Shown here piece after piece: positions 4,401 to 25,267 of a stretch of DNA of 64,000 bases; the stretch's first letter is position 1; every line of letters starts with the position of its first letter. The stretch is from Perna viridis (lineage: Eukaryota): contig CM074520.1 of assembly GCA_037379345.1 (NCBI GenBank), forward strand, positions 38,412,664 through 38,476,663. The letters are read 5' to 3'. The position numbers and the translations under genes were made by a program. The notes under the pieces were generated by a model, which saw only the letters and a program-made list of their open reading frames with translations, was not told the origin of the DNA and ran no database searches.

Positions 4401-4419
4401 TATTAATTTATTTTATTTA

Positions 4420-7365
4420 CATGTACATCGTTTGTGAAGCTATAATAAAGCTATGACGGAGGTACATGAAACATGAAACAACGAATTGTTTTCCTTGTTC
4501 CCCTGAAATTCGTTATAGCCGAGTTTTTTCTGTACATCGTTCATGGAACTAAAGTAAAGCTTTGTGAAGCTAGAATTAAGCTATGACGGAGGTTTATGAT
4601 ACATGTACGTTGTTTTGACGGAGATTTATGATACATGCACATCGCTTGAGAAGCTAAGATAAAGCTTTAACGGAGGGTTATGAAACATTTACATCGTTTG
4701 TGGAACTAAAGTAAAGCTTTGACAGAGGTTTATGATACATGTACATCGTTTGATTAAAGTAACGCTTTGATGGATGTATATGTTAAATGTACATCGTTTG
4801 TGCAGCTAATATAAAGCTTTGACGGAGCCTTATTATACATGTTGGGGAACTAAAATAAAACTTTGACACAGGTTTATTATACATGTACATCGTTTGTAAA
4901 ACTTAAATAAAGCTTTGAGGGAGGTTCCAAGTTCCAGCGTTGCTTGAAGTTGAGGGTATCTGATACACACGCAAAAATGAGGACATTTTCACACCGAGGA
5001 CACACGATGTTAGAATATTGACGCACTGACAATTGCGACATTTTTACAACGAGCACATGTACAGCAATGATGTTTAGGGAACATGACTGTGTAAAATGAA
5101 CGTTACTATAAGGTAAACCACAATGAATAACTCAGAACATGTGTTATGTATGCCTAACATTCCTAAAAAAGCATAGGAACCTTTCCTGGAAGCGCATGAT
5201 ACATGTGCATCGTGAATTTAAAATAAATTTGTTCGTTTTAAACGTTTGTGAAACCCAAATAACGCTTTTTTGGTACATGTTACATGTAAATCGTTTGTGA
5301 AGCTAAAATAAAGCTTTGACGGTGGTTTATGATATATGTATATCGGTTGTGAAGCTAAAATACAGCTTGACGTAGGGAAACTATACATGAAAATCATTTG
5401 CAAAGCTAAAATAAAGTTTTGTCGGAAATTTATGATAGTGAAGCTAAAATAAAGCTTGACGTAGGTACATGTATACTATACATGAAAATCATTTGCGAAG
5501 CTACAATAAAGTTTTGTCGGAGATTTATGATAGTGAAGCTAAAATAAAGCTTGACGTAGGTATACTATATACATGAAAATCATTTCCGAAGCTTAGATAA
5601 AGTTTTGATGGAGGTTTATTATACATTTACATGTACATCGGTTGTGAGGCTAAAATAAAGATTTGACGGAGGTTTATGATACATGTACATCGTTTGGGGA
5701 ACTAAAATAAAGCTTTGACAGAGGTTTATGGTACATGTACATCGGTTGTGAAGCTAAAATAAAGCTTTGACAGAGGTTTATAATACAAGTACATCGGTTG
5801 TGAAGCTAAAATAAAGCTTGACATAGGTATACTATGCATGAACATCATTTGCTAAGCTAAAATAAAGATTTGACGGAGGTTTTTTATGCATGTACATCAG
5901 TTGTGAAGCTAAAATAAAGATTTGCCATGAACATCGTTTGGGCTTGAACGAATAGCTTTGATGGATGTATGAATCTGTGCAATCCTATCCATTGCCTATA
6001 TTATATGATACATGTACATCGCTTGTGAAACTAAAATAAATCTTTGACGGAGGTTTATGATACATGTAAATCGGTTGTGAAGCTAAAATAAAGCTTTGAC
6101 GGAAGTTAATATACATGAACATCGTTTGGGCTTGGACGAATAGCTAAAATAAAGCTTTGATGGATGTATATATCTGTGCAATCATATCCATTGCCTATAT
6201 TATATGATACATGTACATCGTTTTGTAAAACTTAGATAAAGCTTTGGCGGAGGTTCCAAGTTCCAGTGTTGCTTGAAGTTGAGGGTATCTGATACACACG
6301 CAAAAATGAGGACTTTTCACACCGAGGACACACGATGTTAGAATATTGACAGACTGACAATTGCAACAATTTTACAACGAGCACATGTACGGCAATGATG
6401 TTAAGGGAACATGACTGTGTAAATGAACGTTACTATTAGGTAAACCACAATGAAGAACTCCGAACAAGTGTTATGTATGCCTAACATTCCTAAAAAAACA
6501 TAAGAACCATTCCCGGATGCACAAGATACACGTGCATCGTAAAGCTAAAATAAATTCGTTCGTTTAAATCGTTTGTGAAACCCGAATAACGTTTTTTTGG
6601 TACATGTTACATGTACATTGGTTGTGAAGCTAACATAAAGCTTGACGTAGGTATACTATACATGAAAATCATTTGCGAAGCTAAAAAAAGCTTTGGCAGA
6701 GGTTTATGCTGCATGTACATCGGTTGTGAAGCTGAAGCTAAAATAAAGCTTTGACGGAGGTTTTTTATGCATGTACATCGGTTGTGAAGCTAAAATAAAG
6801 ATTTGACATGAACATCGTTTGGGCTTGAACGAATAGCTTTGATGGATGTATGAATCTGTGCAATCCTATCCATTGCCTATATTATATGATACATGTACAT
6901 CATTTGTAAAACTTAAATAAAGCTTTGACGGAGGTTCCAAGTTCCAGTGTTGCTTGAAGTTGAGGGTATCTGATACACACGCAAAAATGAGGACATTTTC
7001 ACACCGAGGACACACGATGTTAGAATATTGACAGACTGACAATTGCGACATTTTAACAACGAGCACATGTACGGCAATGATGTTTAGGGAACATGACTGT
7101 GTAAATGAACGTTACCATACATGAAAATCATTTTAAAAGCTAAAATAATGCTTTGACGGAGGCGCATGATACATGTGCATCGTGAACCTAAAATAAATTC
7201 GTTCATTTAAATCGTTTGTGAAACCCAAATAACGCTTTTTTGTACATGTTACATATACATCGTTTGTGAAGCTACAATAAAGCGTGGACAGAGGTTTATG
7301 ATACATGTACATCGTTTGTAAAGCTACAATAAAGTTTTGACATAGGTTTAAGATACATGCACAGA
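4420..7365. repeat. About 43-bp tandem satellite with interspersed 240-bp blocks (higher-order structure)
   Basis: Unit TACATGTACATCGTTTGTGAAGCTAAAATAAAGCTTTGACGGAGGTTTATGA repeated dozens of times; unique blocks at about 4925-5165, 6255-6495 and 6935-7115. Confidence 0.92.
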
Positions 7366-7735
7366 TGTCCGACAAACTAGGAAATAAATCCCGCCATATC
7401 GGGACCACCACTTGAAGCTGTATACAAAATTTCAGAATCCGACGATTAATAGTCTCTAAGAAAACTATTACGAAAACTGACCATTGACCCAATGGGAGAA
7501 AAAATAAAGAAATGGAGCAATCGCACACGAAAGCGAACCCCCTCGCCCATTAACATTATTTTCAATATAAACTTTAACCTAAGTCATTCATGCAGAAAAT
7601 GTAGGTCAAGGTGACCTATTTTTGGTATTGATGTTGGTTACTACCATAGATATATCCACTGACCTAATATGAACCCTATACAACTTGTACATGTAGTTGC
7701 TGAGATATGGACCTTAACCAAAACTTTAACCTGAC
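7363..7735 (+). mobile_element. Non-autonomous interspersed repeat (AGATGTCCGACA / GTGACCT / TACAAAATTTCA family)
   Basis: Aligns with copies at about 9045-9243, 16800-16860, 19000-19030 and 20548-21135. Confidence 0.65.
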
Positions 7736-8065
7736 AGTACCATACTACTATGGTATGGTACCTACTAACAACAAACAAAACACTATATCAGCTGGTTTTG
7801 CCAAAGCATCGCCCATTTTGGAGCAAGAAGTGATTTTGATGTTTATCAAGAATTCGGCTCATGTGTATGCTAGGGGCCATCTTGGTCTTGTTTGAGGGTG
7901 TGAACATTTCGTTCATTGTTGAAGGCCCTTAGACAACATCAAGATGCAGAACAGGAATAAAGGCCCTGTTCCTTGATAATTGGACTTTAACTTGTATTTT
8001 ATGTGCCTTGCTGTCACATGTACATTCACTCCATATCCTCTCCTTTTTTCTAATGGCAGTGGCTA

Positions 8066-8977
8066 CAGTTACCTGGATTTACCTAGAAAAGTAACAATAA
8101 CATTTTTTTTATTGTTACCTGAGAGTCTATTTCGAGAACGGTTACCGGACACGGAGCTGAAACAGGTAACAATAACATATTATTTAGTTATTCTTACCTA
8201 GTACCGTTATTGTTACCTGAAATTGAAATCGAACAGAAAGGACTAGACCTATTTCAGTTAAAATTAATATGACAGCTTTAGTAAAAATGCTGTATTTTTT
8301 ACATAAAAATATATTATAGCATAGAACCAATATTACACTAACCATGTTCAGCTGAAGTTTCTGTAATGACTTGTAAGGTAAAGTAAAGAATGATGTTGAA
8401 ACATAGTTAAAGGAATACCAAGATGCTAATTTTGTGGAACTTTATAAAAGAAGTTCAACAAAAATAGAAAAGGCAAAAACAAAAAAAGGAAATAATAAGT
8501 ATCAGGAGTTAAATTTAGTATTTGGATCTGGATGTGGTTACGGTTTTTCTCGTGAACATTTATCTATTAGATAAATTATGTATAAATTCTATGCATGATT
8601 TATAAATATTTTCATGCACAAAGTATGTTGAATTTTCATCGTGACTTCCGTCTTATTCAACCTGTATACCAAAGCAGGTGCCCAGGTACAATTTACATTT
8701 CGGATGAGCTCCTTATTCCAAATTATACCTATTAAAAATACAACCACTCAGGCATAAGGGGCGAAACCGTTACAATACATGTATGTAGAACTTGCCACAC
8801 AACCCATTTCCTTAGAATTTACATGTTGCCGAGTGTCAATGTTAAAAAATATCAGGTAACAATAACCAAATAATATCTTATTGTTACCCGTTTCAGGTCT
8901 GTGTCCGGTAACCGTTCCCGAATTAGTCTCTCAGGTAACAATAAGAAATTTCTTATTGTTACTTTTCCAGGTAACTC
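8066..8977. mobile_element. MITE with TIRs of about 125 bp, flanked by TA
   Basis: Left CAGTTACCTGG...GAAAAGTAACAATAA...GGTTACCGGACAC...GGTAACAATAA mirrors right TTATTGTTACC...GTGTCCGGTAACC...TTATTGTTACTTTTCCAGGTAACTC; TA on both sides. Confidence 0.85.
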
Positions 8978-9256
8978 TATCCTGTGCCTTTGCTATATCC
9001 CCTCCCCAATTTGGTTGGCTTGGGGATAATTCAAATGGGAAGTAGATGTCCGACAGACTCAAAATCGAATCCAACCTTATGGTACCACTATCGGAGGCTG
9101 CATACAAAATTTCAGAACGCTACAATTAATAGTGATTAGTCTCCGAGAAAACTGTTACGAAAGTTTGATCACTGACGGACACAAGGACGTCCAGACCAGT
9201 AAAAACATTATACCCTTCACAACTTTGTTGCGTGGGGTTTAAATATATATACTCAC

Positions 9257-9417
9257 CAAGTTCCAGTGTTGCTTGAAGTTGGGGATATCTGATACACACG
9301 CAAAAATGAAGACATTTTCACACTAAGGACAAACAATGTTTTGGGCCCAGGACAGTGCAAATGAACATTACCAAGAAGTACAGAACTCAGAACAAGTGAT
9401 ATGTATGCCTAACAATC
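9257..9417 (-). other. Putative non-coding (5' UTR-like) exon
   Basis: Poly-T/TTTAG acceptor at 9418-9431 and GTGAGT donor at 9251-9256; stops in all three frames; homologous to the blocks embedded in the 43-bp satellite. Confidence 0.45.
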
Positions 9418-9449
9418 CTAAATAAAAAAAAACCCATAGGTACCTGTCC

Positions 9450-9670
9450 ATGACACATGTACATCGTGAAGCTAAAATAAATTAAGCTTTGTCAGATGTG
9501 TATGATACATGTGTTTGTGAAGCTAAAATAGAGCTTTGACAGAGATATATGACACATTACGTTGTTTGTGAAACCAAAATAAAGCTGACAGAGGTTTATG
9601 ATGCATGTACATGTATATTGTCAATGAAATTACATTGAAGCTTTGCAGGAGGTTTGAAGTACATGTAGAT
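9450..9670. repeat. Degenerate continuation of the 43-bp satellite
   Basis: GTGAAGCTAAAATA.AGCTTTGACAGAG units. Confidence 0.8.
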
Positions 9671-9882
9671 TGGTGGTTTCTTTAATCTCTAACTCTGAAG
9701 GATAAATTAACGGAATTCCTCTAAATTCGGTGATTGATGAACAGACATAATCCAATTAAATGTGTGTCAAAAAACTGTTGCATACAAATAAGTCAGGTAA
9801 GTCATATATGAACTAAAAAATTTAATAATAAAATTCTTTAAACATGAACAAGCTTACATACATGTATTATAATTTCTTCATT

Positions 9883-10015
9883 AGTAACAAATATAAACTC
9901 TAATTTCATATTTTAAAAGCAACAAATATAAACTCTAATTTCATAATTAGCAACAAATATAAACTCTAATTTCATAATTAGCAGCAAATATAAACAATAT
10001 AAACTCCGAATTCAT
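9883..10015. repeat. About 31-bp tandem repeat, 4 copies
   Basis: AGCAACAAATATAAACTCTAATTTCATAATT units. Confidence 0.8.
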
Positions 10016-11600
10016 ATACAGAGACTAAGATAAACCTTATTTCAGATAGAAATCATTATATTAAATTCTAAAATACACATGTAACTCCTTTTGGGACTGT
10101 TGAGATATGTATATTTATCATAAGCCATGTATGTTTGGTGTGCAATAGTAAACCTTAATGGTCTATCTTGGCGTTTGTACTAAAATTATTATTACATGAA
10201 AAAGTCCTTGCTTAGTTATCTCCTCAGTCCTGTATACAATAACCAAAATTATTCATCAGGAAATTGGAATCAAATTTGAATGTTATCAGTATGTTTAAAA
10301 ACTTCAGAAATTTTATTGGAATTCAGTAAAAAATAATACAAGAATTGCAACAATAAAAACAATAACTGATGTTTTTCAGTATGTACATTCCTAGATATAG
10401 ATGATGCATTCAATCCTAAAAAAACATCTCAGATTTAGTCATCAGCAAGCAGATCATGATATGATTACAGCATCATTGTCGTGCAATTGATAAGGAGTAT
10501 GGTCAGGTTTAATTAAGATTTTATAAATAAAGCCGCCATTAAATGGATTGTTACCATTCACGAAAAAAATATATCATTAAAAAATAATTTTGTGATATTG
10601 TGTGGTGATAGAATAATGTCAATAATGAAGATCTATTAAACCAAATAGTTTTTTTAAACATAGAAAAATAAACATATAATTTTCATTATTATCGTATTTA
10701 AATTCAATATTTGCGAAAATTACTTTGATAATTTTAAATCAATCCATCAAAACGATTAAATCAAATTTATTTCTATTTTCAAATATTAAAGCTTCTTTGC
10801 GCACCAAATTAAATATAAAATTATCTGATCAATACAAAATATATTTTGTGTGTATCGTCCTTAAAATTATGCAAGAAATATAGCTTTATAACGACTTTAA
10901 TTCTAAACATTGTATGATAAAATTGTAAAAATAAATTTAAAAATACTCAAATGGTCCATCTAAGTATGTCCACTCCTTATCGGGTACACAACAGTGAGGA
11001 TGTCTCTAACAGAACACTATAAAATAAGTATGCTTCCAGTACTTAGAATAATATTCACCACACAAATATGATTGACAATGTAATATGTTTGCCACAATAA
11101 TACATCTGATTTTTATTCATTTTTAGCAACTTTTTGGCATTTTTAAAATGGTAAGAAATAATGTGTTGTTACATTTTCATTTTAATAGAGAATCCGCTGC
11201 AAAAATCCCAACAAAATAAAGGAAAAGTTATGTTGCTTTATGTCCCTTTATTCTCTTTCTTCTAAAAAATATAGATAGAAAAATGCATAACAGTTCTAAC
11301 TAGTGGGTGTGTCTGTAAGCCACGAATGGCCCTCTCGTCATACATGTTGTAGGTACATATAAAAGCCAAAACATGGACTTTACTGAAGTATCTCAATCTT
11401 AAAATGTATGTCACAGTGACCTTATTCCTAGTGGGCTGTGCCATACCACCCAAGACACATCTACTGGAGAAATATCATGACCCTAGTACATATAGTACCA
11501 AAGATATGGACCTAAACCAAGAACTTAACCAAAGTTTTATGGACGTGCAGACGGAGAAGGGTATAACAATGTATGTTTGTTATACATGTACATGTATTAG

Positions 11601-11860
11601 TCACTTCATTTGTATAGAGTAAAGTAATGCAACTATTTTTGTTACTTTTTGTAACTTTCTGTCCATGGAAACAATTTTGTTTCTCACAAAGTCTTTAACC
11701 ATCCTCCATGTTCTTTTTCGCAATACATCATTTGTTTCCAGAAGTTGTTCACATTCACGATTTCCTGGCAATCTTTTCACAGCAAGATGTTTCCTGAAGG
11801 CAGTCTCCACACACCTTTTTTCTTCCTTGGTCCATGTATGTCTTTGTCCATTTTTTTTCC
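11601..11860 (-). pseudogene. Terminal exon: Myb/trihelix-like domain
   Basis: TTTCTTACAG acceptor; GKKNGQRHTWTKEEKRCVETAFRKHLAVKRLPGNRECEQLLETNDVLRKRTWRMVKDFVRNKI, with two spaced Trp helices. Confidence 0.75.
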
Positions 11861-12159
11861 CTGTAAGAAATGATATTGTGTTTTATCTGAACTAGAGGGT
11901 CCATACAGATGACTTCATTTTATCAATCAACAACCATAAAAATTACAATGTAACAATTCTCAAAGAGACAATTTAATATCTATGGATACCAAGTCTTTAA
12001 AATGCATAGATTTTTTGGGAAATATACATGTAAGTGATTTTATTATTTAACTAGTTGCTGTTACACCATTATGGAAGTCCAAATAAGCTGAGCTATTTAA
12101 AAAGGTGATTATAAAAATAATTCCCATTTTAACTATCTTTAGCCTGGCAACCATTTTGG

Positions 12160-12235
12160 TTGGATTGATTGATTGATTGTTGGTGTTTTACGTCCGAGCA
12201 ACACTATATACCGTAGGTTATATCAAGGCGATGAA
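12160..12235 (-). mobile_element. SINE-like 3' tail with (CAAT)n end
   Basis: Reverse strand reads ...GATATAACC...GGACGTAAAACACCAACAATCAATCAATCAATCC, typical of mollusc SINE tails. Confidence 0.4.
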
Positions 12236-12678
12236 CATGAAAGGGTGATAAAATGAACATAAAATAATAATGAATGAAATGGGATGGGTTTGAATGGGAC
12301 ACATGGAAATGCAATTTTGATTGCCACTGGAAAAAAGGGGAGATGGGTAGGCATACCGTGGGGCGGTCCAAAAAGGTACATGCCTGAATTGTGCCACTCC
12401 TCAGACACGTTGGCCCACTATGATCCACGGTCAGGCTTTCTGTATTATGACCTGACAACTCCCGCACACAAGGCCTACCCTATTTAGCCACCAAGAGTAC
12501 ACACCTTGATTGCTCTATGGGCTGAGCACTGCTGCTGACCTATTCTACACCCGCCTCTGCATAGGGTCATTTTGGTTGGAGATGGTGTCTATGCGACACA
12601 CTTTCGAAAGGGGTCCACCCAAAAACAATTCCGCAAGTATGATCCCAATTGACAACACAACTATCTGATATGCCTTAC

Positions 12679-12820
12679 CAACTGGTACAACATGTTTAAA
12701 GTCTTCCACTTCATCTTCATCATCATCCTTATCATAGACTTTTCGTCTAATAGCTGGAGATGGTCTCCAATCTTCATCATTATCATCATCATAATCATCC
12801 ACTTGATTACAATAACTTGA
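12679..12820 (-). pseudogene. Acidic exon of the SET gene
   Basis: TTTACAG/GTAAGG boundaries; SSYCNQVDDYDDDNDEDWRPSPAIRRKVYDKDDDEDEVEDFKHVVPV; phase 1 matches the terminal exon. Confidence 0.75.
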
Positions 12821-13660
12821 CTGTAAACCTATCAATACATATAAATTCTTGTTTCTTCAAATTGCTATTTGAAAATTATGTAATTTCTCCTGCTGATGAA
12901 GTAAAATTTTCATATTTAAAGACAAATTTAGTAAACTTTTAAATGAATTGATGTTTGGTTGTTTAATGTTTTCATGTTGTCTGCTTCTCTGTTTTGTTTT
13001 TTTACACCTTACTAGTAACTGATTTCATCTATCCTCTGACCATTAGGTATGAAAAGTACAATTGGTACCTCTTAGCCTCTATTATACTCAACTATGTTTG
13101 GTTCAAAATTTAAGTTTTACAAAGCAATTGAAAACATGGTAAAATGTATCATACGGCATTTAAAATATTCGGATCAATAATACTTTTGACCAATTTTGCA
13201 CAATTGTGCAAATCTGGTCCTCAAAAGTGAGTGAGTGATTGTTGTTTTATGTCCTACCATCACTATATTTATTTGATCGCAGCAGGTCTGAACGCTGTAC
13301 GTTGGGGGACCAATATGGATAGTCTACTGTGTTTTGTCACATTCGGCCTATGGTGGACTAAGTCAACACTTTTGTCACATGTGTCCCATGGTGGACTTAC
13401 TATATTCTTACACTTTTATCTCTTTAATGGATTCCTTGGTAGCAGCTTTGAAATTGGTATTTACAGCCCCTTTGAACCCAATTGACTTCATTGGACATCT
13501 GCCAAAATATGACTGGTAAAAAATCTGGGACAGAAGCTATTTATTGGGTCATTTTATTAAAATGTAGGGCAGAATGCTACCTAAAAGCTACCTACAGAGG
13601 TATTGAAAGCAACAGGCCATTTCTGAAAAAAAAGCCATAATTATTAATTTTTTGTCAGAA

Positions 13661-14212
13661 AATTCTGTGCAATGTTCCCCCCAAATACCGCAAGACGATC
13701 GCACGGCAGGCACACAACGACTGCTGATGAAGTGTAAATGAGCCCTTAGTCAGGAAGTAGCTGCCAGAGAGATTTTAACCAACATATCAAACAAGCATTA
13801 AATCTGAAGTGGCTGTGGTAAGTAGTTGCTGAGAAATCCTTCGTGTTTCGGTCACATGCAGGTGGAAGGACAGGCTGAGGTAAGCAGTATACACCAACAA
13901 AACTTTTGAACAAGTCAAACATACCATATTGTTTTGAATGAGATTCCATTACATGTAAAGCAGTTGAACCATAATCATCATCATCATCATCAACCAAACA
14001 AGACTCCATCGAATCAGATGAGCCACCATCATCATGATTCTTTAAATCAAATGGGTCATCATCCTCTTCTTCATCTGGAAAACACCAATTAAAATTCCAT
14101 ATTATATGTCTAGAAAATTCATCACTAAAAATGTAAAAGTAGACATAGAGCCATCAATGGATAGCATATGCAGCCTGCTACACCTGTAAATTACCCCCAA
14201 AAAATCATCAGA
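13661..14212. repeat. Internal segmental duplication, copy 1 (copy 2 at 17411-18250), including an acidic exon
   Basis: Near-identical sequence from AATTCTGTGCAATGTTCCCC to AAAATCATCAGA; exon DEEEDDDPFDLKNHDDGGSSDSMESCLVD in both copies. Confidence 0.92.
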
Positions 14213-14221
14213 CATGTCGGG

Positions 14222-14610
14222 GTGGTGCATCATGCAGACTGAGGACATTAGGTTGTGTATCATCTGAACTGAGGACATTAGGTTGTGTATCATCTGAACT
14301 GAGGACATTAGGCGGTGTATCATCTGAACTGAGGACATTAGGTTGTGTATCATCTGAACTGAGGACATTAGGTGGTGTATCATCTGAACTGAGGACATTA
14401 GGTTGTGTATCATCCAGACTGAGGATATTAGGTGGTGTATCATCCGGACGGAGATTGGGTGGTGTATCATCTGGACTGAGGACATTAGGCGGTGTATCAT
14501 CTGAACTGAGGACATTAGGTTGTGTATCATCCAGACTGAGGACATTAGGTGGTGTATCATCCGGACTGAGGACATTAGGTGGTGTATCATCTGGACTGAG
14601 GACATTGGGT
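14222..14610 (-). repeat. 30-bp minisatellite, about 13 units, inside a putative exon
   Basis: Unit GGTGGTGTATCATCTGAACTGAGGACATTA; the minus strand can encode NVLS(P/S/L)DDT(P/Q)P repeats. Confidence 0.92.
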
Positions 14611-15304
14611 GTTTAAATTTCATTTGAATTGGTCAAAGCATACTGCATTATCTTATGACATAGAAATTTCTGGTGGACTGTCAGATTGACGTCCAATTTT
14701 TCGGCAACAATTCAAAATCAAAAGACTTCTTTCTATATATAGTGATAATTACTGTTGGGTACATTTAAATCATCAAGGCATTCATCAGTTATCGTACCAC
14801 ACAGAAAAATGTGATTGACAGACAAACATAGTGATTACTGCTGGGCATGCCATCATTCGTGGTGGGCCCTAATTACTGCCCTTTTCCTGTCGAAACAGAA
14901 TGAAAAGAAATTGCTCCAAAATTATTTCCTTTGATAATCAGAAAATATGCTCAGTGTAATAATACTGATCTACCTTAAGGCAAATAACTTTGGCAATTCC
15001 AGTCATACCTGTAGTGTTTTGTTGTGGTTTCTTCTTGTTTGAGTAGACATGTCTTTTCTTTGGAATGGAATCTTTGGAGCGAATTTCAAAACCTGTAACA
15101 GTTAGAAGAGCTTCACAGTATATATTTTATTTCTGAAGACAATCTTTTCTTTACCATCAAAAGTGATAATTTCTTGGTATTTCCTGATGGTCAAACATTT
15201 ATATATTAGCTCTTTAATTCTGACAGCCAAGATTCTATAGAATAAAAAAAATGATCAACTGCTAACAATGAAATTTTCACTCATCATTTGTCCTATTTCA
15301 GTTT

Positions 15305-15382
15305 AGGCCATTATAAAATAATTCCTAGATTCTCATTGGGACGGAAGGAGATGAGAATCTAGGATATTTCTTATATTGGCCT
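15305..15382. mobile_element. Tiny fold-back (MITE remnant)
   Basis: AGGCCA.TATAA.A.AATTCCTAGATTCTCAT ... ATGAGAATCTAGGATATTTCTTATATTGGCCT. Confidence 0.6.
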
Positions 15383-15859
15383 TATCTGTCAATAATGTGA
15401 TAATGTCCTTTGCATGTTCATTGTATTAAAATTCGTATCAAGTCAAAATATTCAATAATATTGAGTGGTATTTAATTCCTAATTCTCTTGCATTAGGGTT
15501 TGAACAATTAAACATGAATCTCATTACCAAAGCACGACCTATTTTTCATGTCCGAAATAAATGCATCTCTGTGTATCTCTGTGAATTAACATCTGATTGC
15601 TGTTGAATTGGTTACCAATTTGCAGCTGAATTTGGTACGACTTACTACTATGACCCCCCTCCCCCAATAAGAATCATGTTTTTATTAGCAACTACATAAT
15701 AATTTCAAGAGAGGACTACCAAATATTGCATGATAATGCATCCAGCTCATGCATTCACTTTTAAGTTCGCTTCAACGAAAGTTGAGGAAGAACTACTGGG
15801 ATACCCACTGATTCCAAATGCATGTCCGCATACACGAACATCCACGATACATGTCCCTG

Positions 15860-16295
15860 ATTAAAGTTTAGGTCCAACCTCATATTTCAGTAACTATAAG
15901 TGGTAGGATCTTGTAACCTTGTATACAGATGCACCTTAAGTATAGGCCAGCATCCAGGTAAAATTAGGTCACTCTGACCTACATTTTACACATCAGTGAA
16001 CTTGGTTAAAGTTTAGGTCCAACCTTATATCTCAGTAACTATTTATAAGTGGTATGATCTTGTAACCTTGTATACCCTGGCAAAACTAGGTCACTCTCAC
16101 CTACATTTTACTCATCAGTGAACTTGGTTAAAGTTTAGGTCCAACCTCACACCTCAGCAACTATAAGTGGTAGGATCTTGTAACCTTGCATACTGATGCA
16201 CCATGGAGGGTAGGTCAGCATCCAAGCAAAATTATACATTGCAAATCATTGTGCCGTAACGAGGCAAACTTTGTAATCGTTGATTACCTAGTATG
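15860..16295 (-). repeat. About 120-145-bp tandem units (x3) of the GTGACCT repeat family, reverse orientation
   Basis: AAAGTTTAGGTCCAACCT..ATCTCAG.AACTATAAGTGGTAGGATCTTGTAACCTTG repeated at about 15864, 16008 and 16130. Confidence 0.75.
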
Positions 16296-16483
16296 TTTAA
16301 TGTATATGGTTGCATTTAAATTTTTAACATCTTTTCATCACAGGTGGTCTCTTTTATCTGTCAGGATTAGAAAGTTATAACAAATCCAAGGCAACAAGTT
16401 GATGTCGGAGCACAAAAAAGTGTGTATTCAGTGATATTAATCCTTAAATCTTCCGGCTGTTTTAAAGAAAATTTTAAACCTAC

Positions 16484-17164
16484 CTCTTATTCCATCTGTC
16501 TGATTTTTTCTTCTCCATGCTCTTCCTCTTTCCTTTGGAGTCTCTCTTCCTCTTCCTTCCTTGCTTGCAACTGGGCTTTGGTAGCAGCAACCTACAATTG
16601 ATATAAAATACATAAATGATCATAATTATTACTAGCCAATGAAATAATTACCTTTGGACAATAGATGACCTTGAGAGCTGTGGGTATTTATCTCGTCTTC
16701 TTTTCTCCTAAGATAATTCTCTTTATTGGTTTCCGCAATGTAAAAAAAACTGGTCAAAGATAGAAAAACACGAATATCATTAAAAAGGAAGTAAATCTCA
16801 CCATATGGGACCCAAACTGAGACTGCACACAAAATTTCAAAACCTTACAACTAATACATGTATTTGTTTCCCCAACTGCCCATTATTCACCATATTATAT
16901 TTCACTTTCATGAAATAAGGGTAATAATTAGACAGCAAAGGAATTTTCAATGTAATTTCTAACTATTAAAATATCATTCAATGTGTCTTAAAAGACACAA
17001 TTTTAAATGAATATGATATGATATTACCATAGCTGTCTTCTGTTTTTCTCTTTCTCGTTTCTCCTTGTCTAAATCATCAATGGTTATAACGTTGACGGCA
17101 GCCATCTTGGGTTCTATGTCAACCTCCACCTGGTATTCTGGACTAGGTTCTTCTGCATCTTCAC
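16484..17164 (-). pseudogene. Two charged coiled-coil exons of the SET gene (17164-17028, 16591-16484)
   Basis: GEDAEEPSPEYQVEVDIEPKMAAVNVITIDDLDKEKREREKQKTAM | VAATKAQLQARKEEEERLQRKEEEHGEEKIRQME*E; canonical splice sites, phase 0 junction. Confidence 0.65.
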
Positions 17165-17410
17165 CTGCAATAAGTTAAAAGGTCAGGGGAACAAGGTTAT
17201 GACAATACACTCTTATATCCATAGACTGGGGGGTTACAACAATTAAAAAATGTTTCTACATACATGACAGATGGCAATGCAAGTCTTGTTCTAGAAAAAA
17301 CATGAACAATAGAAGTATCAATGCTGACCTACCATTCCTGATGCATCCATACACAAGGTTAGATGATCCTACCATGTATAGTTGCTATCATTATTAATTT
17401 TATGTCAGTG

Positions 17411-18250
17411 AATTCTGTGCAATGTTCCCCCGAACACCGCAAGACGATCGCACGGCAGGCACACAAAGACTGCTGATGAAGTATAAATGAGCCCTTAGTC
17501 AGTAAACAGGAAGTAGCTGCCAGAGAGATTTTAAATTCGGTCACCAACATATCAAACTAGCACTAAATCTGAAGTGGCTGTGGTAATTAGTTGCTGAGAA
17601 ATCCTTCGTGTTTCAGTCACGTACAGGTGGAAGGATAGGCTGAGGTAAAGCAGTATACACTGACAAAAATTTTGAACAAGTCAAACATACCATATTGTTT
17701 TGAATGAGATTCCATGTAAAGCAGTTGAACCATCATCATCATCATCATTATCAACCAAACAAGACTCCATCGAATCAGATGAGCCACCATCATCATGATT
17801 CTTTAAATCAAATGGGTCATCATCCTCTTCTTCATCTAGAAAACACCAATTAAAATTCCATATTATATGTCTAGAAAATTCATCACTAAAAATGTAATAT
17901 GAGGAAGGTGCAACCTGAAATGCTCCCAAAGATATTCTTATAAAAACCTTTTATTGGTATTTTGTTATAGCCGGTTATACTCGACGTCCTGCTTGCGCTT
18001 AATACAGAGGAAGATTACTATCACAATGATGTCATGATTGACGCTGATCCGTCAAAAATGAAAGTAGAAAACCCCGATACAATGTGCATGCAGAACAGGA
18101 CATTGAAGGAAAACTACTCATAGTATTCATAATTTAATGACATTTCTACGATTATCGCTCCCTTCGGGAGCATAAAAGTAGACATAGAGCCATTAATGGA
18201 TAGCATATGCAGTCTGCTGCACCTGTATATTAGCCCCCAAAATCATCAGA
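17411..18250. repeat. Internal segmental duplication, copy 2 (with a 275-bp insertion)
   Basis: Aligns to 13661-14212 apart from the insertion at 17898-18172. Confidence 0.9.
17898..18172 (+). mobile_element. 275-bp insertion with TAA duplication and 3' hairpin
   Basis: Empty site AATGTAAAAGTAGAC near 14130; filled site AATGTAA[...GCTCCCTTCGGGAGCA]TAAAAGTAGAC. Confidence 0.75.
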
Positions 18251-19345
18251 ACAAAATCAACATCCTTAAATATGTTTTGTTTTGGTTATGTTCAACTTTA
18301 ATTGAGCTGATACACAATTATGAAGAGTACATTTTTGCATCAGATTTAGCCTTTTTATAAATGGTGAGTGACACAAGTAATTATAAGTATATGGAATTTT
18401 TCATCATCAATCATTTCAAATTTGACCAATATTTTAATATTTGATGTTCAAATGTTTCTTTAAAAGAACAATTTCTTCATTTCTTTACAAAGTTAGAGTA
18501 CAACTAGATGGAGCGATCCAGGAATAGAAAATGCCGCCAGCACACAAGTTTTTGGTAAACAGGAAGTAGATGAGCTATGGCCATAAAATTGCTTACAATG
18601 TATAGTAATATACATGTAGTATGAAGACTTCTGTAAAGTTTTCAGCCTCTCAGGCTCTGCTCTATGCAGTTCCTGAAAAAAGTGTTACAGAAATGTTGTG
18701 TGACGCAGGATGATGCATGGTTCCTAAGTGATCCTTATATGTCCAAACATAATAATAAGCAAACTGAAAGTGTCTCCAAGACACGGATGTCTCGCTCGGC
18801 ACATATTTGTCCCCCAAGACTGTTGGCATAAAAAGAATACACACAGAAATAAAATAATAAAATACATAATACACAAAATGATATAACAAAGAAAGTAGCA
18901 TATGCATAGCAAGGGTAGTAAAATCAAATAAAATAAAGCAGGCTAAGCTAAGTTTATACGTGTATAAGCATAAACAGACTCGTCAAGACAGCATAGACTG
19001 CATACAAAATTTCAAAATCCTACAACCAATAGGTGACCTAATTTCACCTTGATGCTGACCTACAACCCCTGATGTATGCAAATACATCCACCATTTTTAG
19101 TTCCTGAGATATGAACTCTGACATAAACTTGAATGTATACTTGCACGCGGAAGTAGACACAGGGGGTTCGCCAATAGTTCTCCTTCAACTTCGTTGAGAC
19201 AAACTCAAAAAAACAAGTTTCATGAAGATTGGTGAAGTCACTTCAAGGTTATAGACTGGACACAAATTTTGCAGATGGACGGATAGACAAAGTGATTCCT
19301 ATATACAACCAAACTTTGATGGCAGGGGTATAAATTCAATAGTAC

Positions 19346-19550
19346 CTGATGCCTCCAAAAAAGTTTGTCTGGGTCATCCCCGTAGTCATATCGCAATTCT
19401 TCCCCTAAGGGTATATCCCTGCTGGCAAACAGGCACAACCTAGGATACTGGTTAAATATCTTTAATTTCATCTTGGTATTGCACATGGAAGTGCCATTTT
19501 CAGCATCATTCACGAATTTACACAAATGGTTGGATTCTGATCCATCAATC
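19346..19550 (-). pseudogene. SET domain C-terminal exon
   Basis: (W)IDGSESNHLCKFVNDAENGTSMCNTKMKLKIFNQYPRLCLFASRDIPLGEELRYDYGDDPDKLFWRHQ, containing the RFxNH-like and GEELxYDY SET motifs. Confidence 0.92.
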
Positions 19551-20262
19551 CTAGAAAAAAGGAACTTTAATTTTACAACAATAAATCTGTGAAAGAGTCA
19601 CTGGCAGGACTAGCGACACCCCCCTCTGTCTTGTATTATCATGAGAAAAATTGGCTAAAGGCAATAAGTATGTAATCTGAAAGTAGATAACCAACAGACC
19701 TGAAAATAAAATCCATGATATGGGACCTAATATGGACAAAATGTATGGATGCAGCATATGAAACATAAAAAGCTATTGATAATATTGTTACAAAAAATTT
19801 CAATATATTGGTCCTAATTGCTACAATATTGTCGAAAAACAGGAAGACGACTGACAGACCCAAAATAGGTAAATCTGCATACCAAATTATATCAAGATGC
19901 TGTGGTAGGTAGTTGCTTCAAAAACTTTTAACAAACATTTTCAGTATTGGCTCTAAAGGACACGGAATTGTATTGGTGGGTAGGAACAGCAGATCTGAAA
20001 ACTAGATGGTGAAATCCAGAGGAATAGCATATATTTCTGCAGCTAAAACTTTTACAAACAGGAAGTAGATGATCATGGAGCATAAAAATGTTTTACACGA
20101 TACAATACCACATGTATAATAGATTTAGTACTATAGACTGCTGTAGTATAATTTCAAGCAGTTCAGCAACTAAACTATTTTCCTATACATTAAATGTGAA
20201 AAATTTCTAGGAAAATTGTTTATGCCTGATCATGCTGATGTAGACTAGGTTTTTATACTCAC

Positions 20263-20412
20263 CAGTATGATTTGTTATTATAAACCTATCCGAATAGAAA
20301 GTTATGCTTTTTCCAGTCTTTTGCGGTGAGTTCTTCCTGTCTTTTCTACCTCCGAAATGTTCCAGCAAAAACTCTCCTTTTAAGAAAGATTTTGTTGTAA
20401 AAACACCAAAAC
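20263..20412 (-). pseudogene. SET domain middle exon (frameshift and stop)
   Basis: GFGVFTTKSFLKGEFLLEH, then in a shifted frame NFLFG*VYNNKSYW; TTTCTAG/GTGAGT boundaries. Confidence 0.85.
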
Positions 20413-20547
20413 CTAGAAAAAAAACCACAAAAGATGAGACAAACGCCTGTTTTAAAGTATAATATCTAAAAAAACAAGTGTTAACAAGAACAGATTCTAG
20501 GACCCCTGCCAGATGAAAAAAATCTAAGCCGGCTCATTAAACAAAAA

Positions 20548-21135
20548 GATGTCCGACAGACCCAAAAAAAGAATCCCAACCAATGGGACCCCTACTTGAG
20601 GCTGCATACAAAATTGTAGAAGCCTACAATTAATAGTTTCTGACAAAAAATAAAAACGAATCCCACCATATGAGACCACTACCTGAGGCTGTATACAAAA
20701 TTTCCGAATCCTACCATTAGCTTCTGAGAAAACTGTTATGAAAATTTTCCATTGACCCTATGGAAGAAAAATGGAGCAGTTGCCCGGACAGCAAATCCCC
20801 TCACCCATTTTTGATTATATTATTTTGAGAGCAATATTATTCCCTAAAATGTAAAATCTAGATCAAGGTGAATATATTAACTTTAGTAGAGATGTTGGCT
20901 ATTACTCAAGATGTATCCACTATCCAATTATCATTCCTTTACCACTTGTACTTGCTGAGATATGGGCATTAACGAAAACTTTAACCCAAGTCACTTATGC
21001 ATAAAATGTAGGCCAAGGTGACCTAATTCGGTATGGATGTTGGTTACTACCCAAGATGCATCCACTAATCAAATATCATCCCTCTACTACTTTTAGTTGC
21101 TGAGATATGGACCTTAACCGAAACTTTAACCTGAC
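20548..21135 (+). mobile_element. Copy of the AGATGTCCGACA / GTGACCT repeat family
   Basis: Homologous to 7363-7735. Confidence 0.65.
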
Positions 21136-21775
21136 CATTACTCACATATGTACACACAAACCAAACTCTATAAATGACTATAAATGGGATAAAAATGACT
21201 AAGTCGTAAAACAAGAAGAAGATGTGCGACAGCATCAGGGTTTGAAATTACCACTCGCCCACTAGCATTTGGCCCCTAAAATTTTCTGTGGGCGGGGGCT
21301 TTAACAATCTTTGACTCCCAATATTTTTAGGAAATATGGTTTGCACAAAGCATGCGCAGTATTTGATCATGATTTAACAAAATTCCACTGAAAAATGTAA
21401 AATTTATCTAGAATCTTGGTCCAGATGTTGGTAAGATACGGAATTATAATGAATAGATAAAATACAAGTTGTCTTTGTTGTGTTGCCTGAAACAAGGCAA
21501 TCCCAGTCCCAATATCAAAATTTCACAGGGTCCTCGAATATATTCAAGCATTGCTATCGACTACTCAAGTATTGAAATTAGCATGTTTTGACATTCCCAA
21601 ATATTGCATTCAATTATTCCATTACACATTCCTCTCATCTATCATCAAAGCAATTGATTTTCAATTATAATCGATCATTGGGACAACACAAGCAAATACA
21701 ACTGAACTCAACAGACTGTTGGAGGATGTACTATTTGTTCATGGAAGATGATTACATTTACTACAACTTACTTAC

Positions 21776-21884
21776 CTATACATTTACTTATAATTTTTTT
21801 TTCAAATCCGTCTTTGTCGAGCCCCATCTCACACCAAAATTAGGCGTCACTATCCGGACTTGTTCTTCCATGTCTTCTACTAAT
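21776..21884 (-). pseudogene. SET domain N-terminal (pre-SET) exon with in-frame stop
   Basis: ISRRHGRTSPDSDA*FWCEMGLDKDGFEKKIISKCI|G; TAA at 21840-21842; GTAAGT donor, phase 1 into the GFGVF exon. Confidence 0.75.
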
Positions 21885-23470
21885 CTATATTAAAAATGCA
21901 TAGAAAAGAAGATCTGTAATAACCATGATTCAACTCAGCATACCATACCTAGATATACAATTTACATGTAATAACTGGAAAAAAACCCTAGAAATCGGAC
22001 GAAGTCGGGAAGGCCCTGTTCGTAAAAAGTCCAAGTTTTAACCCAAAATATTTGATGGATTTGCACAAATTTTTAATATGCAAATCTTCAAATGGTACTT
22101 AGTGACTGTGTAGAGTTTCAGCTCTGCACTGGGTTGTACGGAACTTAATGAAAAATTTAAGGACACATTAATGACAAAATTGTTACATCTGATTGGCTAA
22201 TGATGAGTTAATGACAAATTAATGAAGTCATTAGAGTTTCGTACAACCGGATGCTGTACTTTGCATAGTTCTCTTAGTTTTAGTGTTCACATGAAATTGT
22301 GGACAGACGGACAAAGTGAATACTATAGGGCGCAGCATTTTCAAAAAAAAAATGTGAACAAATAATCTCCCCTAGAATTCTTCAGGCTTGTCAATATCAT
22401 CCTTTCATACATCACACATGTACACAAATGTATTTATTTAGATAAGTTATACATGTCATGCATGTTATAAGCATTGGTTATTAGCATATTAAAAAAATAG
22501 CGAAATCTCGTTTCAACCTTATGTCTATTTTAATGTTGAAGACATTGAACACTTTCTGTTGAAATTGTGAAAATTTCAATAACATTAGACAAGAACATCT
22601 CAGAGACACTATAGTCTGTAGTCAATATGATGATAAATACACATGTAAGTGTACAAAATATTATGAATAGATTGGACTTACCAGTACTGTTTCTGAGAAA
22701 TCTACTTAAAATGAAGGTTTTTCAAACATGTCAAAAGGTAAATCTTTCATGAATGAATGAGCCAACCAATCAAGCAACCAGCAGCCAACCAACCATAAAA
22801 CTATACATGTAGGCTATGTCTAATTTCTTCAGATGAGACAAAAACATTAACTTACCAGCTTTGAGGGGGAGGGTTTATAAATATAACACAGATTGTAAGA
22901 TTATAACTGTTTATTACTAAACTTCAATCTTGAATAACAATACAGTAGCATCAGCGGCAAATAGGCACTTCAGGAGACTTCATGCAAATTTCAATCACTG
23001 GCATGCAAAAAAAACATTGCCGTTACGTTTTTCAAATGCACAATTTTTCATACCTAGCGCAACCACTGTCTTTCACTAGTACCTGAGAAATGGTACTAAA
23101 CGGAGTGGCTCAAGTGGAAAATGTTGGTCAAAGTGACCTTATTATTACTGGTGAACCTTGTAGTACTTCCCACATGTGAATCTAAACACAACAAACTTTA
23201 ACAGACATTATATGTGTACATGTACAAGGTTACAACAACGTACTTTTTGCTTGAATGCTGGCTTATTCTGGCTTACTCTGCAAGGACCAAGGTGCATCAT
23301 TATACTAAGTTTCAACATCCTACCATTTATAGTCGTGAGATACACTATGAGCTCAGATCTAAAACTAAACCAAGTACACTGATAGTAAAATGTATGTCAG
23401 AGTGACCTACTTTTGCATGGATGCTGATTTACTCTCCAAGATACTTCAACATACAAGGTTACAACATCAC

Positions 23471-23964
23471 ACCTGTTAACCTCTGGAAGCATGTAAGAGG
23501 GAGATCTCCCACTTTGCCATTCATCTATGAGGGAGATTTTGCGTAGCGACCCTTTTTCGTCAAAACTTTTCATGTTATATAGAAATAACCATACCAGTAC
23601 ATGTATTATGAAATAAGGTAAGTTAACCTTTTTGAAGAATATATTTTAAATGCTAATATAATTTAATTAAATAATTGAATTAGATGAGCATTTAAAATCT
23701 ATTAATCCATATAATGTACACAATTTCAGTTAAATTACCTATTACACCTATATTTGACTTAATTAAGGGTTGTACCAAGAAGACAATTCACTGGATTATG
23801 TCTGTAAATTGGAAGTTATTGGCAAAAGATAAGTTAGAGGGAGATTTTGGGGAAGAAATATGTGTAAGAGGGAGATTTATGTCTCCCTCGTGGGAGACTT
23901 ACTCTAAGGGGAGAAATGACTGCTAAGAGGAAGTCTCCCTCTTAATGTGGGAGGGTTAACAGGT
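23471..23964. mobile_element. MITE
   Basis: TIRs ACCTGTTAACC...AAGAGGGAGA / TCTCCCTCTT...GGTTAACAGGT; internal GAGGGAGATTT repeats; interrupts a GTGACCT-family repeat. Confidence 0.75.
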
Positions 23965-24113
23965 ATTCAACATGCTACACCACTTATAGTTGGTGAGATC
24001 CGAGCTCGGACCCAACAGTTAACATGGGAATGACAAGGGTACTCCAATAGTTCAACATCAACTTTGTTAAGGCAATCTAACAATGTCAGAAATGCATTGT
24101 TGTCTATACTTAC

Positions 24114-24190
24114 AGCATGTTTTCCTCTTGAGATGGCTGACATCTCTGAAATTCACAAAATGTAGTTCAGTCATGTGCTTCTACAATCTA
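24114..24190 (-). other. Putative 5' exon of the SET gene
   Basis: TTTTTTTTCTTCTAG acceptor and GTAAGT donor at 24108-24113; similar small exon candidates near 22682-22707 and 22856-23082. Confidence 0.4.
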
Positions 24191-24254
24191 CTAGAAGAAA
24201 AAAAACCAATCTAATTATTGATTACAAAGGTCATCTCATTATGCAGCATATTAT

Positions 24255-24400
24255 TTAAGAAACAATTTATGTCTGTCATATTTTATTGGTCTTTAAACAT
24301 GAATATTTAATCCCGAGCGGTAGCGAGGGCGTTAAATCTCATGAATATATTACCTACCCATGTTTAAATACCAATAAAAATGGCAGACATAAATTATTTC
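24255..24400. mobile_element. Crypton-N-like palindromic element
   Basis: AATTTATGTCTG.CAT..TTTATTGGT.TTTAAACATG ... CCCGAGCGGTAGCGAGGG ... CATGTTTAAA.ACCAATAAAAATG.CAGACATAAATT. Confidence 0.55.
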
Positions 24401-24799
24401 GATTCTAATAGGACAAACAAACATATTTTAAGGTCTGAAGCGGAGCCTGACAGCCATTATATTCAAGTTTCAAGTCTTGGAGCGACGCTTCTGTTTTTTA
24501 AAATAACATGAAAACAACTTAATAATTTTTATATTTAGTGAACAAAAAAAAAGAATAAAAATAACGACCATTTTACATGAAAGGTTCAGATGACAGATGG
24601 AACTTTTTTCCAAATTCGGAGCATGGGCATAGACGGGTCCACATAGGGAAGTAATGGGCGTACGCTTCAACTTTGATGAGAAAATTTTTATTTATTTAAC
24701 ACAAAATTTAATTTTTTTTTTCGGAAACTGCAGACAAAAACGTAAAATAACACATTTTTAGATGATTTTTCTCATGATGATTTCGCTCCCTCTTTGAAA

Positions 24800-25050
24800 A
24801 ACCCTGCACCCGCCCCTGCGGAGTCAGACATAATAGGCACGTATGGCCATATGACGTGAAAGACTGCTGGTGTTTTGTGAAACAACATCTGGAATATTAT
24901 ACGTACAACTCTTTTCTTCTCTCAACGACATGACTGTCGCCATCTTTTTTTTCAAAATCAACGCATGCGCAATAACATTTTGTGTAAAAGTTTTTGTTGC
25001 GGGAAATGGCAAAATATGGTAGACACGTACACCTTCGTTGTACATTGACA
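24800..25050 (-). promoter_or_regulatory. Candidate promoter/TSS region of the SET gene
   Basis: Locally CpG-richer; GC box CCCGCCCC near 24808; YY1-like AAGATGGCG on the minus strand near 24938-24946. Confidence 0.3.
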
Positions 25051-25144
25051 GATGACGGACTGCAAGTGAGACCCTGTTATTTTTTTAGTTTTTTATATGT
25101 TTTGTAGGAAAATAAGTGATTTTATGATTTTTTCTGCAGAATCA

Positions 25145-25228
25145 AACTGAGGACGTCCTCAGTTGTAAGTGGAGTCCTCAAATAAAGGTGTGTATACTTA
25201 TCCGAGTCCTCAATGACATACTGGGAGC

Positions 25229-25230
<2 letters not shown>
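25145..25230. mobile_element. Putative transposon terminus (palindrome plus GTCCTCA repeats) abutting (CA)n
   Basis: Perfect palindrome AACTGAGGACGTCCTCAGTT at 25145-25164; GAGTCCTCAA at about 25172 and 25204. Confidence 0.45.

Positions 25231-25267
<37 letters not shown>
25231..25267 (+). repeat. (CA)18 microsatellite
   Basis: Perfect CA run. Confidence 0.98.

Follow-up and report, generated by a model that had tools for sequence, protein, structure and literature searches.

A 26,080-bp element lies on the minus strand of the window (the whole analysed stretch of 64,000 nucleotides of Perna viridis DNA), running from position 25229 to about 850 bases before the window start, with a (TG)n tract at each end (Table 1). 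Loci were compared within the assembly of the window (G000), whose contigs are called C1 to C15 here; the window copy lies on C10. The first-pass annotation had anchored the element at a microsatellite, which was indeed found at its 5' end, and had assigned it an extent of 11601..25267. Half of it was thereby missed, as it continues for about 12.5 kb, to about position -850. The direct repeats at the ends are the (TG)n tracts themselves. The best end-to-end matches are 10 bases long, and there is only a short imperfect inverted motif, with no long terminal inverted repeats.

Table 1. Features of the element, in window coordinates unless stated otherwise.
Feature	Position	Strand	Evidence
Element body	1..25229, on to G000:C10:38411813, ending in (TG)n	-	C9 alignment from 25267 to -864; flanks diverge past both microsatellites
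Broken C2H2 zinc-finger array, 3' half	2104..2470	-	Pfam zf-H2C2_2 E 1.1e-8, zf-C2H2 E 1.7e-5
52-bp tandem arrays, within element	4614..7363
900-bp insert, 124-nt inverted arms, within element	8076..8977
Terminal exon, three-helix Myb/homeodomain-like, open frame	11601..11860	-	no joint among those listed
Acidic exon candidate, AG..GT ends	12679..12828	-	no joint among those listed
Duplicate of 17390-17897 (~91% overall, core 98%), contains exon 10	13634..14136	-	self-comparison
Exon 10, copy of exon 6	14074-13925	-	joint 15009>14074
30-bp minisatellite, 13 copies, intronic in transcripts seen	14221..14611		joint 15009>14074
Exon 9, basic	15009..15092	-	joints
Exon 8, charged, coiled-coil-like	16484..16591	-	joints
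Exon 7, acidic/charged	17028..17164	-	joints
Exon 6, acidic, out-of-frame junction with exon 5	17691..17835	-	joints
Exon 5, C-terminal half of SET (FVND, ELRYDYG)	19346..19550	-	Pfam SET E 2.7e-6; joints
Exon 4, N-terminal half of SET	20263..20412	-	exon comparison and joints
Exon 3, pre-SET	21776..21884	-	joint to exon 4 in 4/4 runs
Exon 2, likely ATG (MSAISRGKHA)	24114..24190	-	joints and frame
Exon 1, 3' part (start unmapped)	24907..24983	-	GT-AG joint 24907>24190, run X6 only
5' subterminal region, TG(A/G)GGAC, 3 forward and 1 reverse	25140..25229	-	motif count
(AC)19 microsatellite, 5'-end insertion target	25230..25267		same end abuts (TG)n in 6/6 close copies

Transcript evidence was taken from contigs of public runs presumed to be RNA (X1, X3, X6, X7 and X18), with X1 and X18 counted once, given their near-identical tables. 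Eight GT-AG joints are present in these contigs, and splicing spans exons 1 to 10. The pre-SET and SET exons, the acidic, coiled-coil-like and basic exons and the terminal exon are all present as first annotated. The proposal of a single 12-exon gene ending in the terminal domain was not confirmed: no joint among those listed leads into the acidic exon at 12.8 kb or the terminal exon. Coverage over 11734-12100 and 12468-13201 (none in X3 and X7, low in X6) was not used as evidence. The minisatellite, previously taken for an exon, is bypassed by joint 15009>14074 in all three RNA-like runs and in 0 of 1 DNA-like run. In transcripts, exon 8 is followed by sequence missing from the assembly, and in X3 and X6 exon 9 is preceded by an extra exon of at least 128 bases, which gave 0 matches in the assembly and all loci compared. 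Four further exon candidates (23060-23215, 22835-23075, 22665-22770 and 14590-14900) read poorly, lie inside observed introns and were rejected.

The SET reading frame is interrupted in all four of its genomic copies, and the stops and frameshift reported earlier were confirmed. An in-frame TAG in exon 4 (20288-20286) is common to the four copies, which means that the frame was broken before they separated; only the window copy has a TAA in exon 3 (21842-21840), and a 1-base frameshift near 20342 in exon 4 is found in the window and C9 copies. Joint 19346>17835, which connects exons 5 and 6, closes the SET frame 10 codons on, a further point on which the continuous gene first proposed found no confirmation. 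Exon 4 aligns to contigs of X3 and X7 without a single difference or gap, so that these contigs carry both the TAG and the frameshift. Between the window and the second C8 copy (C8b), the SET exons show 9 amino-acid-changing and 6 silent differences, with changes slightly below the neutral-drift expectation in numbers too small to test.

These lesions bear on whether the element holds a live, recombinase-less SET gene, with an open-frame copy in some individuals, a stand-alone protein of ~175 residues that would methylate histones to protect the element, and an assembly that captured dead alleles only. Such a gene would account for the X6 contig over exons 3 to 5, in which the frame-restoring base is present with no other gap (exon 4 has 6 differences, 5 of them listed, and its TAG site could be in either state), and it would fit the extra exon of X3 and X6, the open SET frames of close relatives (P0001, 75%; P0002, 65%) and a second YR-less element, on C15, with open SET exons. 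We nevertheless consider it decidedly unlikely, because the TAG occurs in 4/4 genomic copies and in the X3 and X7 contigs, the stop 10 codons into exon 6 is followed by at least four downstream joints and is thus a likely decay signal, and the usual NH of the SET motif is ND in the element group (VND). As judged from the reading frame, the SET gene is likely a spliced, transcribed pseudogene and a passenger rather than the working chromatin writer initially envisaged, and the spliced RNA would not yield an active methyltransferase.

Domestication of the element at the window locus, as a long non-coding RNA or promoter donor, is very improbable. Spliced contigs do come from at least four studies, and those of X1, X3 and X7 carry letters private to the window, but the SET exons are as diverged (15/463) as the whole element (~3%), and exon content differs among individuals.

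The 5' end is present at six loci, with 95-100% identity. Both ends are present in the window, C9 and C4 copies, which lie on three contigs in unrelated flanks (0 for a control pattern), while two copies on C8 and one on C2 have the 5' end only. Thus, the multi-copy state with common boundaries suggested by the first-pass annotation was borne out. (TG)n tracts adjoin both ends of the three two-ended copies and the 5' end of the three truncated ones. The C9 copy is colinear with the window copy at 98.6% identity across 25,962 bases; since both are devoid of a YR, the YR-less form has transposed at least once, and the alignment shows that this 26-kb form did so recently (1.4% divergence). Close to the ends, TG(A/G)GGAC motifs are clustered (Table 1), with five reverse copies beyond the window, in the 300 bases that close the 3' end, against a background of 0.039 per kb per strand (window 25400-64000). 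These clusters are likely recombinase-binding sites. An empty site for the window element was not found among the loci compared with the flanks of three copies. A C14 pair and a locus at C4:44.26 Mb were rejected as further copies, with only the first 70-270 bases alike (70-82%) and no SET or YR.

Ordinary segmental duplication of a decayed host SET gene, with the microsatellites incidental, would be in keeping with the position of both C8 copies within a single 64-kb tandem duplication and with the SET-YR copies on C13, which are alike over 60 kb at 99.8%. It is scarcely tenable, however, as at three loci, each on its own contig, identity breaks off at the (TG)n tracts on either side and TG(A/G)GGAC clusters lie at both ends; the boundaries common to copies already contradict it. 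Moreover, a paralogous empty site exists for the sister element on C15, and the host SET gene, found once in the search, lies apart from the copies at C9:1.69 Mb; from its motifs we take it to be SET8/KMT5A-like. This gene shares with the element the SET fold, an ELxYDY motif and ~49% identity over the last exon, but has a canonical INHS motif in place of VND, and no (TG)n end was seen beside it. Neither condition set by the first-pass annotation for its own refutation, a single-copy syntenic host SET gene or copies without a common boundary, was found to hold.

Pfam Phage_integrase gave 65 matches across the assembly, none at the six copy loci. As this family misses the YR of the group, a YR profile of our own was built. 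With it, nothing under E 5 was obtained in the six frames of the element and of the C9, C4, C2 and C8 regions, in agreement with the recombinase-free exons first described, whereas YR frames were recovered on C13, C1, C8 (34.5 Mb), C11, C12 and C14 (E 1e-28 to 1e-50). SET, YR and a C-terminal three-helix domain occur within one Hydractinia protein. P0175 is a full SET-YR-tail protein, its YR region being nearest to Phage_integrase clusters (0.91), and P0107 is a SET tail-repeats-YR-tail protein. The layout is thus whole in a cnidarian, partial in sea urchin and represented by linked exons in the window genome, where SET-YR loci lie on C12 and C13. Together with P0175, these loci uphold the proposed descent from SET-YR-C-terminal-domain proteins. 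The model of an oyster relative (P0016) folds like XerH, XerA and Cre (Foldseek E 8.7e-5); a PDB sequence search with the C13 YR and the YR alignment returned no integrase, and the fold search alone found one.

The C12 locus comprises SET, a broken YR and a weak tail, with (TG)n next to a 5' end that resembles that of the element; only short 5' words are common to the two. No YR-bearing locus with the ends of the element was found in the assembly. The candidate donor YR loci are broken, both that with the most similar end (C12) and those with the most similar motif (C14, C15:11.1 Mb and C2:11.6 Mb); for the YR families that are intact, C13 and C1/C8/C13, the ends were not found. Acidic and repetitive spacers also flank the YR in YR-intact relatives. 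Because of these spacers, and because the minisatellite is spliced out, the YR exon was likely lost by deletion rather than giving way to acidic, minisatellite and duplicated exons, as had been supposed.

The terminal exon has 504 relatives. Among 33 long ones, 26 match the YR-region profile (10 of these 26 were used to build it) and 8 match the independent C13 query. The tail, first described as Myb/trihelix-like, was modelled as a three-helix bundle with a helix-turn-helix (pLDDT 93.8), close to homeodomains (Z 8.3-7.5, rmsd ~2, 56-64 residues aligned), the telomere-repeat Myb 4j19 (Z 7.7) and, at Z 5.8, the GT-1 trihelix; a Myb/homeodomain-like fold is thus predicted. Sequence matches were weak: the Myb_DNA-binding profile matched 4/78 relatives (best E 0.009), and the best PDB sequence match was a Myb (E 0.059). 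For the window exon itself, Pfam gave 0 families, a word-indexed search nothing among 31 candidates, and an Atlas search only unnamed clusters, all under 0.9.

Taken together, the window copy is best read, with a probability of about 0.8, as a (TG)n-flanked, non-autonomous CryptonV-like YR transposon that was moved in trans. This placement follows described features (YR, microsatellite target), not Repbase CryptonV sequences. The consulted part of PMC8869645 describes CryptonV as YR-encoding and microsatellite-targeting and cites Kapitonov and Jurka (2012, Repbase Reports); CryptonV is also listed in the parts seen of PMC4455052 and PMC5753468. On this partial description, the likeness consists in a YR-encoding lineage (here the relatives), microsatellite insertion, animal hosts and no long terminal inverted repeats. 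The window copy differs in having no recombinase, a length of 26 kb, many introns and, besides its probable SET pseudogene, a disrupted zinc-finger array and a three-helix tail. Some CryptonV entries in Repbase may carry SET. A search of open papers did not turn up the SET-YR-three-helix layout; Repbase reports or supplements to papers may already describe SET in CryptonV. The excerpted PMC3212892 reports CryptonI-1N1_RPro and CryptonA-1N1_OL as non-autonomous, internal-deletion derivatives that far outnumber their autonomous partners; they too kept both ends and lost the YR, but the window family has six close copies, a spliced gene remnant and a (TG)n target. The Phytophthora DNA transposons HarbingerS and MuDR likewise carry a SET histone-methyltransferase gene, according to the portion seen of PMC12730594, but these are oomycete elements with DDE transposases, whereas in the window group SET is fused to YR in animal relatives and broken in the window copy.

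The ancestor of this CryptonV-like element would have encoded a single protein in which SET and the YR were each followed by a spacer and a three-helix DNA-binding domain came last. The large exon with the YR would then have been deleted, probably out of the 820-bp gap ahead of the terminal exon. A related YR supplied in trans would bind the inward-facing TG(A/G)GGAC clusters, cut the element out as a circle through recombination within the microsatellite and place it in another (TG)n, as in the general Crypton model. The fixed ends of a large microsatellite-targeting YR element, with a candidate binding motif, lend themselves to a straightforward recombination assay. The window locus, a probable decayed passenger, is of value as a marker of a poorly documented group, and multi-copy SET8-like gene models are to be annotated as transposon genes.

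The C15 element (G000:C15:16232986-16290200) is 57 kb long and lies in (GA)n; its match at C1:0.53 Mb is just a 378-base end. It is conceivable, if rather unlikely, that SET-carrying, microsatellite-targeting Crypton-like elements lost their YR repeatedly here with SET still expressed, the putative X6 allele and the C15 element being mobile methyltransferases. If an intact YR-less SET copy is real, animals would offer a case of a transposon with its own chromatin writer. A YR was also sought, and not found, in the unique middle of the C4 copy, which contains a tandem DDE and His-Me array. The C9 and C4 copies likewise have a disrupted C2H2 zinc-finger array.

The element is a large, recently moved, recombinase-less Crypton-like transposon carrying a transcribed SET pseudogene. 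The window lies at C10:38412664-38476663 of the Perna viridis assembly (G000), in which the last SET exon had 21 matches among 26 candidates, four of them at 97–100% identity (the window, contig C8 twice and C9). The alignment of the C9 copy ran from window position 25267 to −864, interrupted by one 4.1-kb insert, and each of its limits coincided with a (TG)n tract. This puts the element's length at 26,080 bp, and the interval 11601–25267 proposed in the first-pass annotation corresponds to its 5' half only; the microsatellite-anchored terminus proposed there was present at both ends of the window and C9 copies. The 5' end gave nine matches in the assembly (six at 95–100%); for the 3' end, a DNA search and a 24-base pattern (control pattern, 0) each gave three locations, on C10, C9 and C4. 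The C4 copy kept both ends, its middle being exchanged for other repeats, while the C8 pair lies inside one tandem duplication, with similarity breaking off at window position 19141, and the C2 copy breaks off at 22860. Substitution identity to the window copy was 98.6% (C9), 96.4% (C4), 96.7–97.1% (C8) and 95.6% (C2). Counting the copies and aligning their flanks thus yielded a multi-copy family with common ends and unlike flanks at five insertion sites. Nested in the C4 copy (G000:C4:40604700-40619400) is a tandem array of about five units with a Mutator-like DDE transposase and an opposite-strand His-Me endonuclease, consistent with KolobokP multimers as outlined in PMC9587614.

No long inverted repeat was found between the ends, the best end-to-end matches being 10 bases. 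Within the first 90 bases, the motif TG(A/G)GGAC has three forward copies and one reverse copy, and five reverse copies fall in the last 300 bases. These clusters, set against a density of 0.039 per kb per strand over the remaining window, are putative recombinase-binding sites. The unit of an intronic minisatellite (window 14221-14611) contains a 14-base word with the end motif, and the 43-bp repeats close to the 3' end have this word as well; the minisatellite may have arisen by amplification of a binding site, or the shared word may be fortuitous. Related 5' ends (70–82%) lie beside short TG runs at C14:4752678, C14:4773418 and C4:44263640, the C14 pair facing inward at a distance of 20.7 kb with no SET or tyrosine recombinase (YR) between.

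A YR profile was built from 10 relatives and used for six-frame searches. It recovered other loci of the assembly at E 1e-28 to 1e-50 and nothing under E 5 in the element or the C9, C4, C2 and C8 regions, in line with the absence of a recombinase noted previously. With an E-value limit of 0.001, 504 relatives of the terminal domain were found. Among the 150 listed, 33 were of at least 400 residues; 26 of these matched the YR-region profile (10 of the 26 having been used in building it), and 8 of the 33 matched an independent YR query from C13. The structure model of an oyster relative matched XerH (E 8.7e-5), then XerA, lambda integrase and Cre. In a Hydractinia protein, one chain runs from SET through a low-complexity spacer to the YR and on through an acidic spacer to a similar tail (below the tail-profile cut-off); in a sea-urchin protein, the last part of SET is followed by tandem repeats, an acidic spacer, the YR and the tail. 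On C13, all six SET matches, which may represent one duplicated block, had a YR frame 23.4–23.5 kb downstream. The C12 locus (G000:C12:17165000-17227600) contains the last SET exon nine times at about 5.5-kb spacing, a broken YR and a weak tail match, and its 5' end has (TG)n and some words in common with that of the element. Since SET-YR-tail relatives were found, the architecture cited in the first-pass annotation is correct. Intact YR frames (566–583 residues) were present on C13, C1 and C8; the ends of the elements carrying them were sought and not found. Two (TA)n tracts at C14:30291747 and 30305855, each after the same 20-base word and upstream of a broken YR, are perhaps the ends of another microsatellite-targeting family.

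Replacement of the recombinase by acidic, minisatellite and duplicated exons had been suggested. Intact proteins have spacers of the same kind on both sides of the YR, and for this reason the window is better explained by deletion. The loss may be placed in the gap of about 820 bases between the acidic exon candidate near position 12.8 kb and the terminal exon, since the former, on visual comparison, resembles the acidic spacer that immediately precedes the YR and the distance is short.

The claimed exons were present on the minus strand (see table), with acidic, charged and basic exons downstream of the SET exons, the third of which matched Pfam SET (E 2.7e-6). A blood-clam protein came out as the nearest named relative, with 75% over that exon; it contains the acidic word DDPFDLK as well. 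The SET gene is broken, contrary to its proposed role as a chromatin writer: in all four copies SET is interrupted by TAG in frame at 20288-20286, a position occupied by an aromatic residue in relatives. In addition, a private TAA stops the window copy's frame when the exons are spliced as they stand, one frameshift is common to the window and C9 copies, and one of the C8 copies (C8a) has a separate frameshift. The SET exons differ from those of the other (C8b) at 15 of 463 bases, the level of the whole element; nine changes alter a residue and six are silent, a number too small for judging selection.

Features of the element, its sister and the window (window positions unless a contig is given)
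Feature	Coordinates	Strand	Evidence
Pre-SET and SET exons	21884-21776, 20412-20263, 19550-19346	-	reading of window sequence
Terminal exon	11860-11601	-	reading of window sequence
Joint	24907>24190	-	X6
Joint	24114>21884	-	X1
Joint	21774>20410	-	X1, X3, X6
Joint	20262>19549	-	X1, X3, X6
Joint	19346>17835	-	X1, X3, X6
Joint	17689>17162	-	X1, X6
Joint	17026>16589	-	X1, X3
Joint	15009>14074	-	X3, X6, X7
C15 sister element	G000:C15:16232986-16290200
B-box/coiled-coil (TRIM-like) coding exon	61207-61920	-	Pfam zf-B_box, E 6.5e-12

Eight joints with GT-AG ends were found in contigs of public sequencing runs (X1, X3, X6, X7) whose RNA status is a guess, no RNA label being on record; run X18 duplicates the X1 results. 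The DNA-like run X15 was without the two of the eight joints listed for its comparison. The last joint skips the minisatellite, which is intronic in these contigs and not exonic as had been assumed. An additional joint in X1 skips exon 5, the exon 5–6 joint closes the SET frame 10 codons further on, and in X3 and X6 the basic exon 9 is entered from 128–130 bases without a match in the assembly. Contigs from X3 (exons 3–4) and X7 (most of exon 4) match the lesioned exons with 0 differences and so carry the lesions. The chief result against a SET pseudogene is an X6 contig over exons 3–5 that holds a frame-restoring base; its exon 4 shows 6 differences, 5 of them listed and none of these at the TAG, differences near contig-piece ends lying outside the listing. 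A live writer in this element family is unlikely.

The AlphaFold2 model of the tail shows three bundled helices, the last of them long (pLDDT 93.8). Its best structural matches were homeodomains (Z 8.3, rmsd 2.0, 64 aligned), followed by a telomere-repeat Myb domain (Z 7.7) and, lower than both, the GT-1 trihelix (Z 5.8), all moderate scores for a helical domain this small. The model suggests a Myb/homeodomain-like domain that is likely DNA-binding; of the Myb/trihelix-like tail proposed before, the Myb-like fold is the part retained, with weak Myb support by sequence.

According to the model for Cryptons, the elements leave their site as circles and then insert again (PMC3212892; general features are given in PMC13465315). 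By analogy, a YR from a related element would act on the end motifs and recombine within the microsatellite. The element works like a non-autonomous member of CryptonV, described as YR-encoding and microsatellite-targeting in PMC8869645 and listed in PMC4455052 and PMC5753468, the likeness being one of features. SET capture by HarbingerS and MuDR is noted for Phytophthora in PMC12730594. In the literature searched on CryptonV and on Crypton/YR with SET, no animal transposon was described as having a SET-YR fusion; one may be recorded in Repbase reports. Overall, the initial observation and its interpretation held in part: mobility, lack of a YR and SET-YR-tail descent were retained, and extent, writer and YR replacement were not.

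A distant SET match on C15 lies in a 57-kb sister element with (GA)n at both ends and the same TG(A/G)GGAC motif clustered nearby. In a paralogous repeat on C14 (C14:30271281), its two flanks are joined across (GA)n, representing an empty site. Two SET exons and a weak tail match were open, as were repeat-rich frames of 357 and 314 residues; neither a YR (by profile search) nor the pre-SET exon was found in it. A 378-base end copy lies at C1:530984, inside the same host repeat.

M-phase phosphoprotein 8 is a subunit of the HUSH silencing complex. Fish proteins so annotated (P0027, stickleback; the P0026 cluster, salmonids; P0020, whitefish) match, past the chromodomain, the YR region of the transposon group (P0027, E 2e-155) and contain two tail copies; in P0020 the tail is joined to ankyrin repeats. 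The arrangement has the look of a Crypton-like gene that was domesticated and became part of a factor silencing transposons; the literature searched, including portions of PMC10380595 and PMC7619638, did not mention it.

Elsewhere in the window, 2901-3670, 33600-35870 and 52470-57544 are presumably retroelement-like coding fragments (Pfam gave no match). An array of 25–36-bp repeats at 28725-28910 also forms inverted pairs, and satellite arrays occupy 42203-42644 and 48005-49077.
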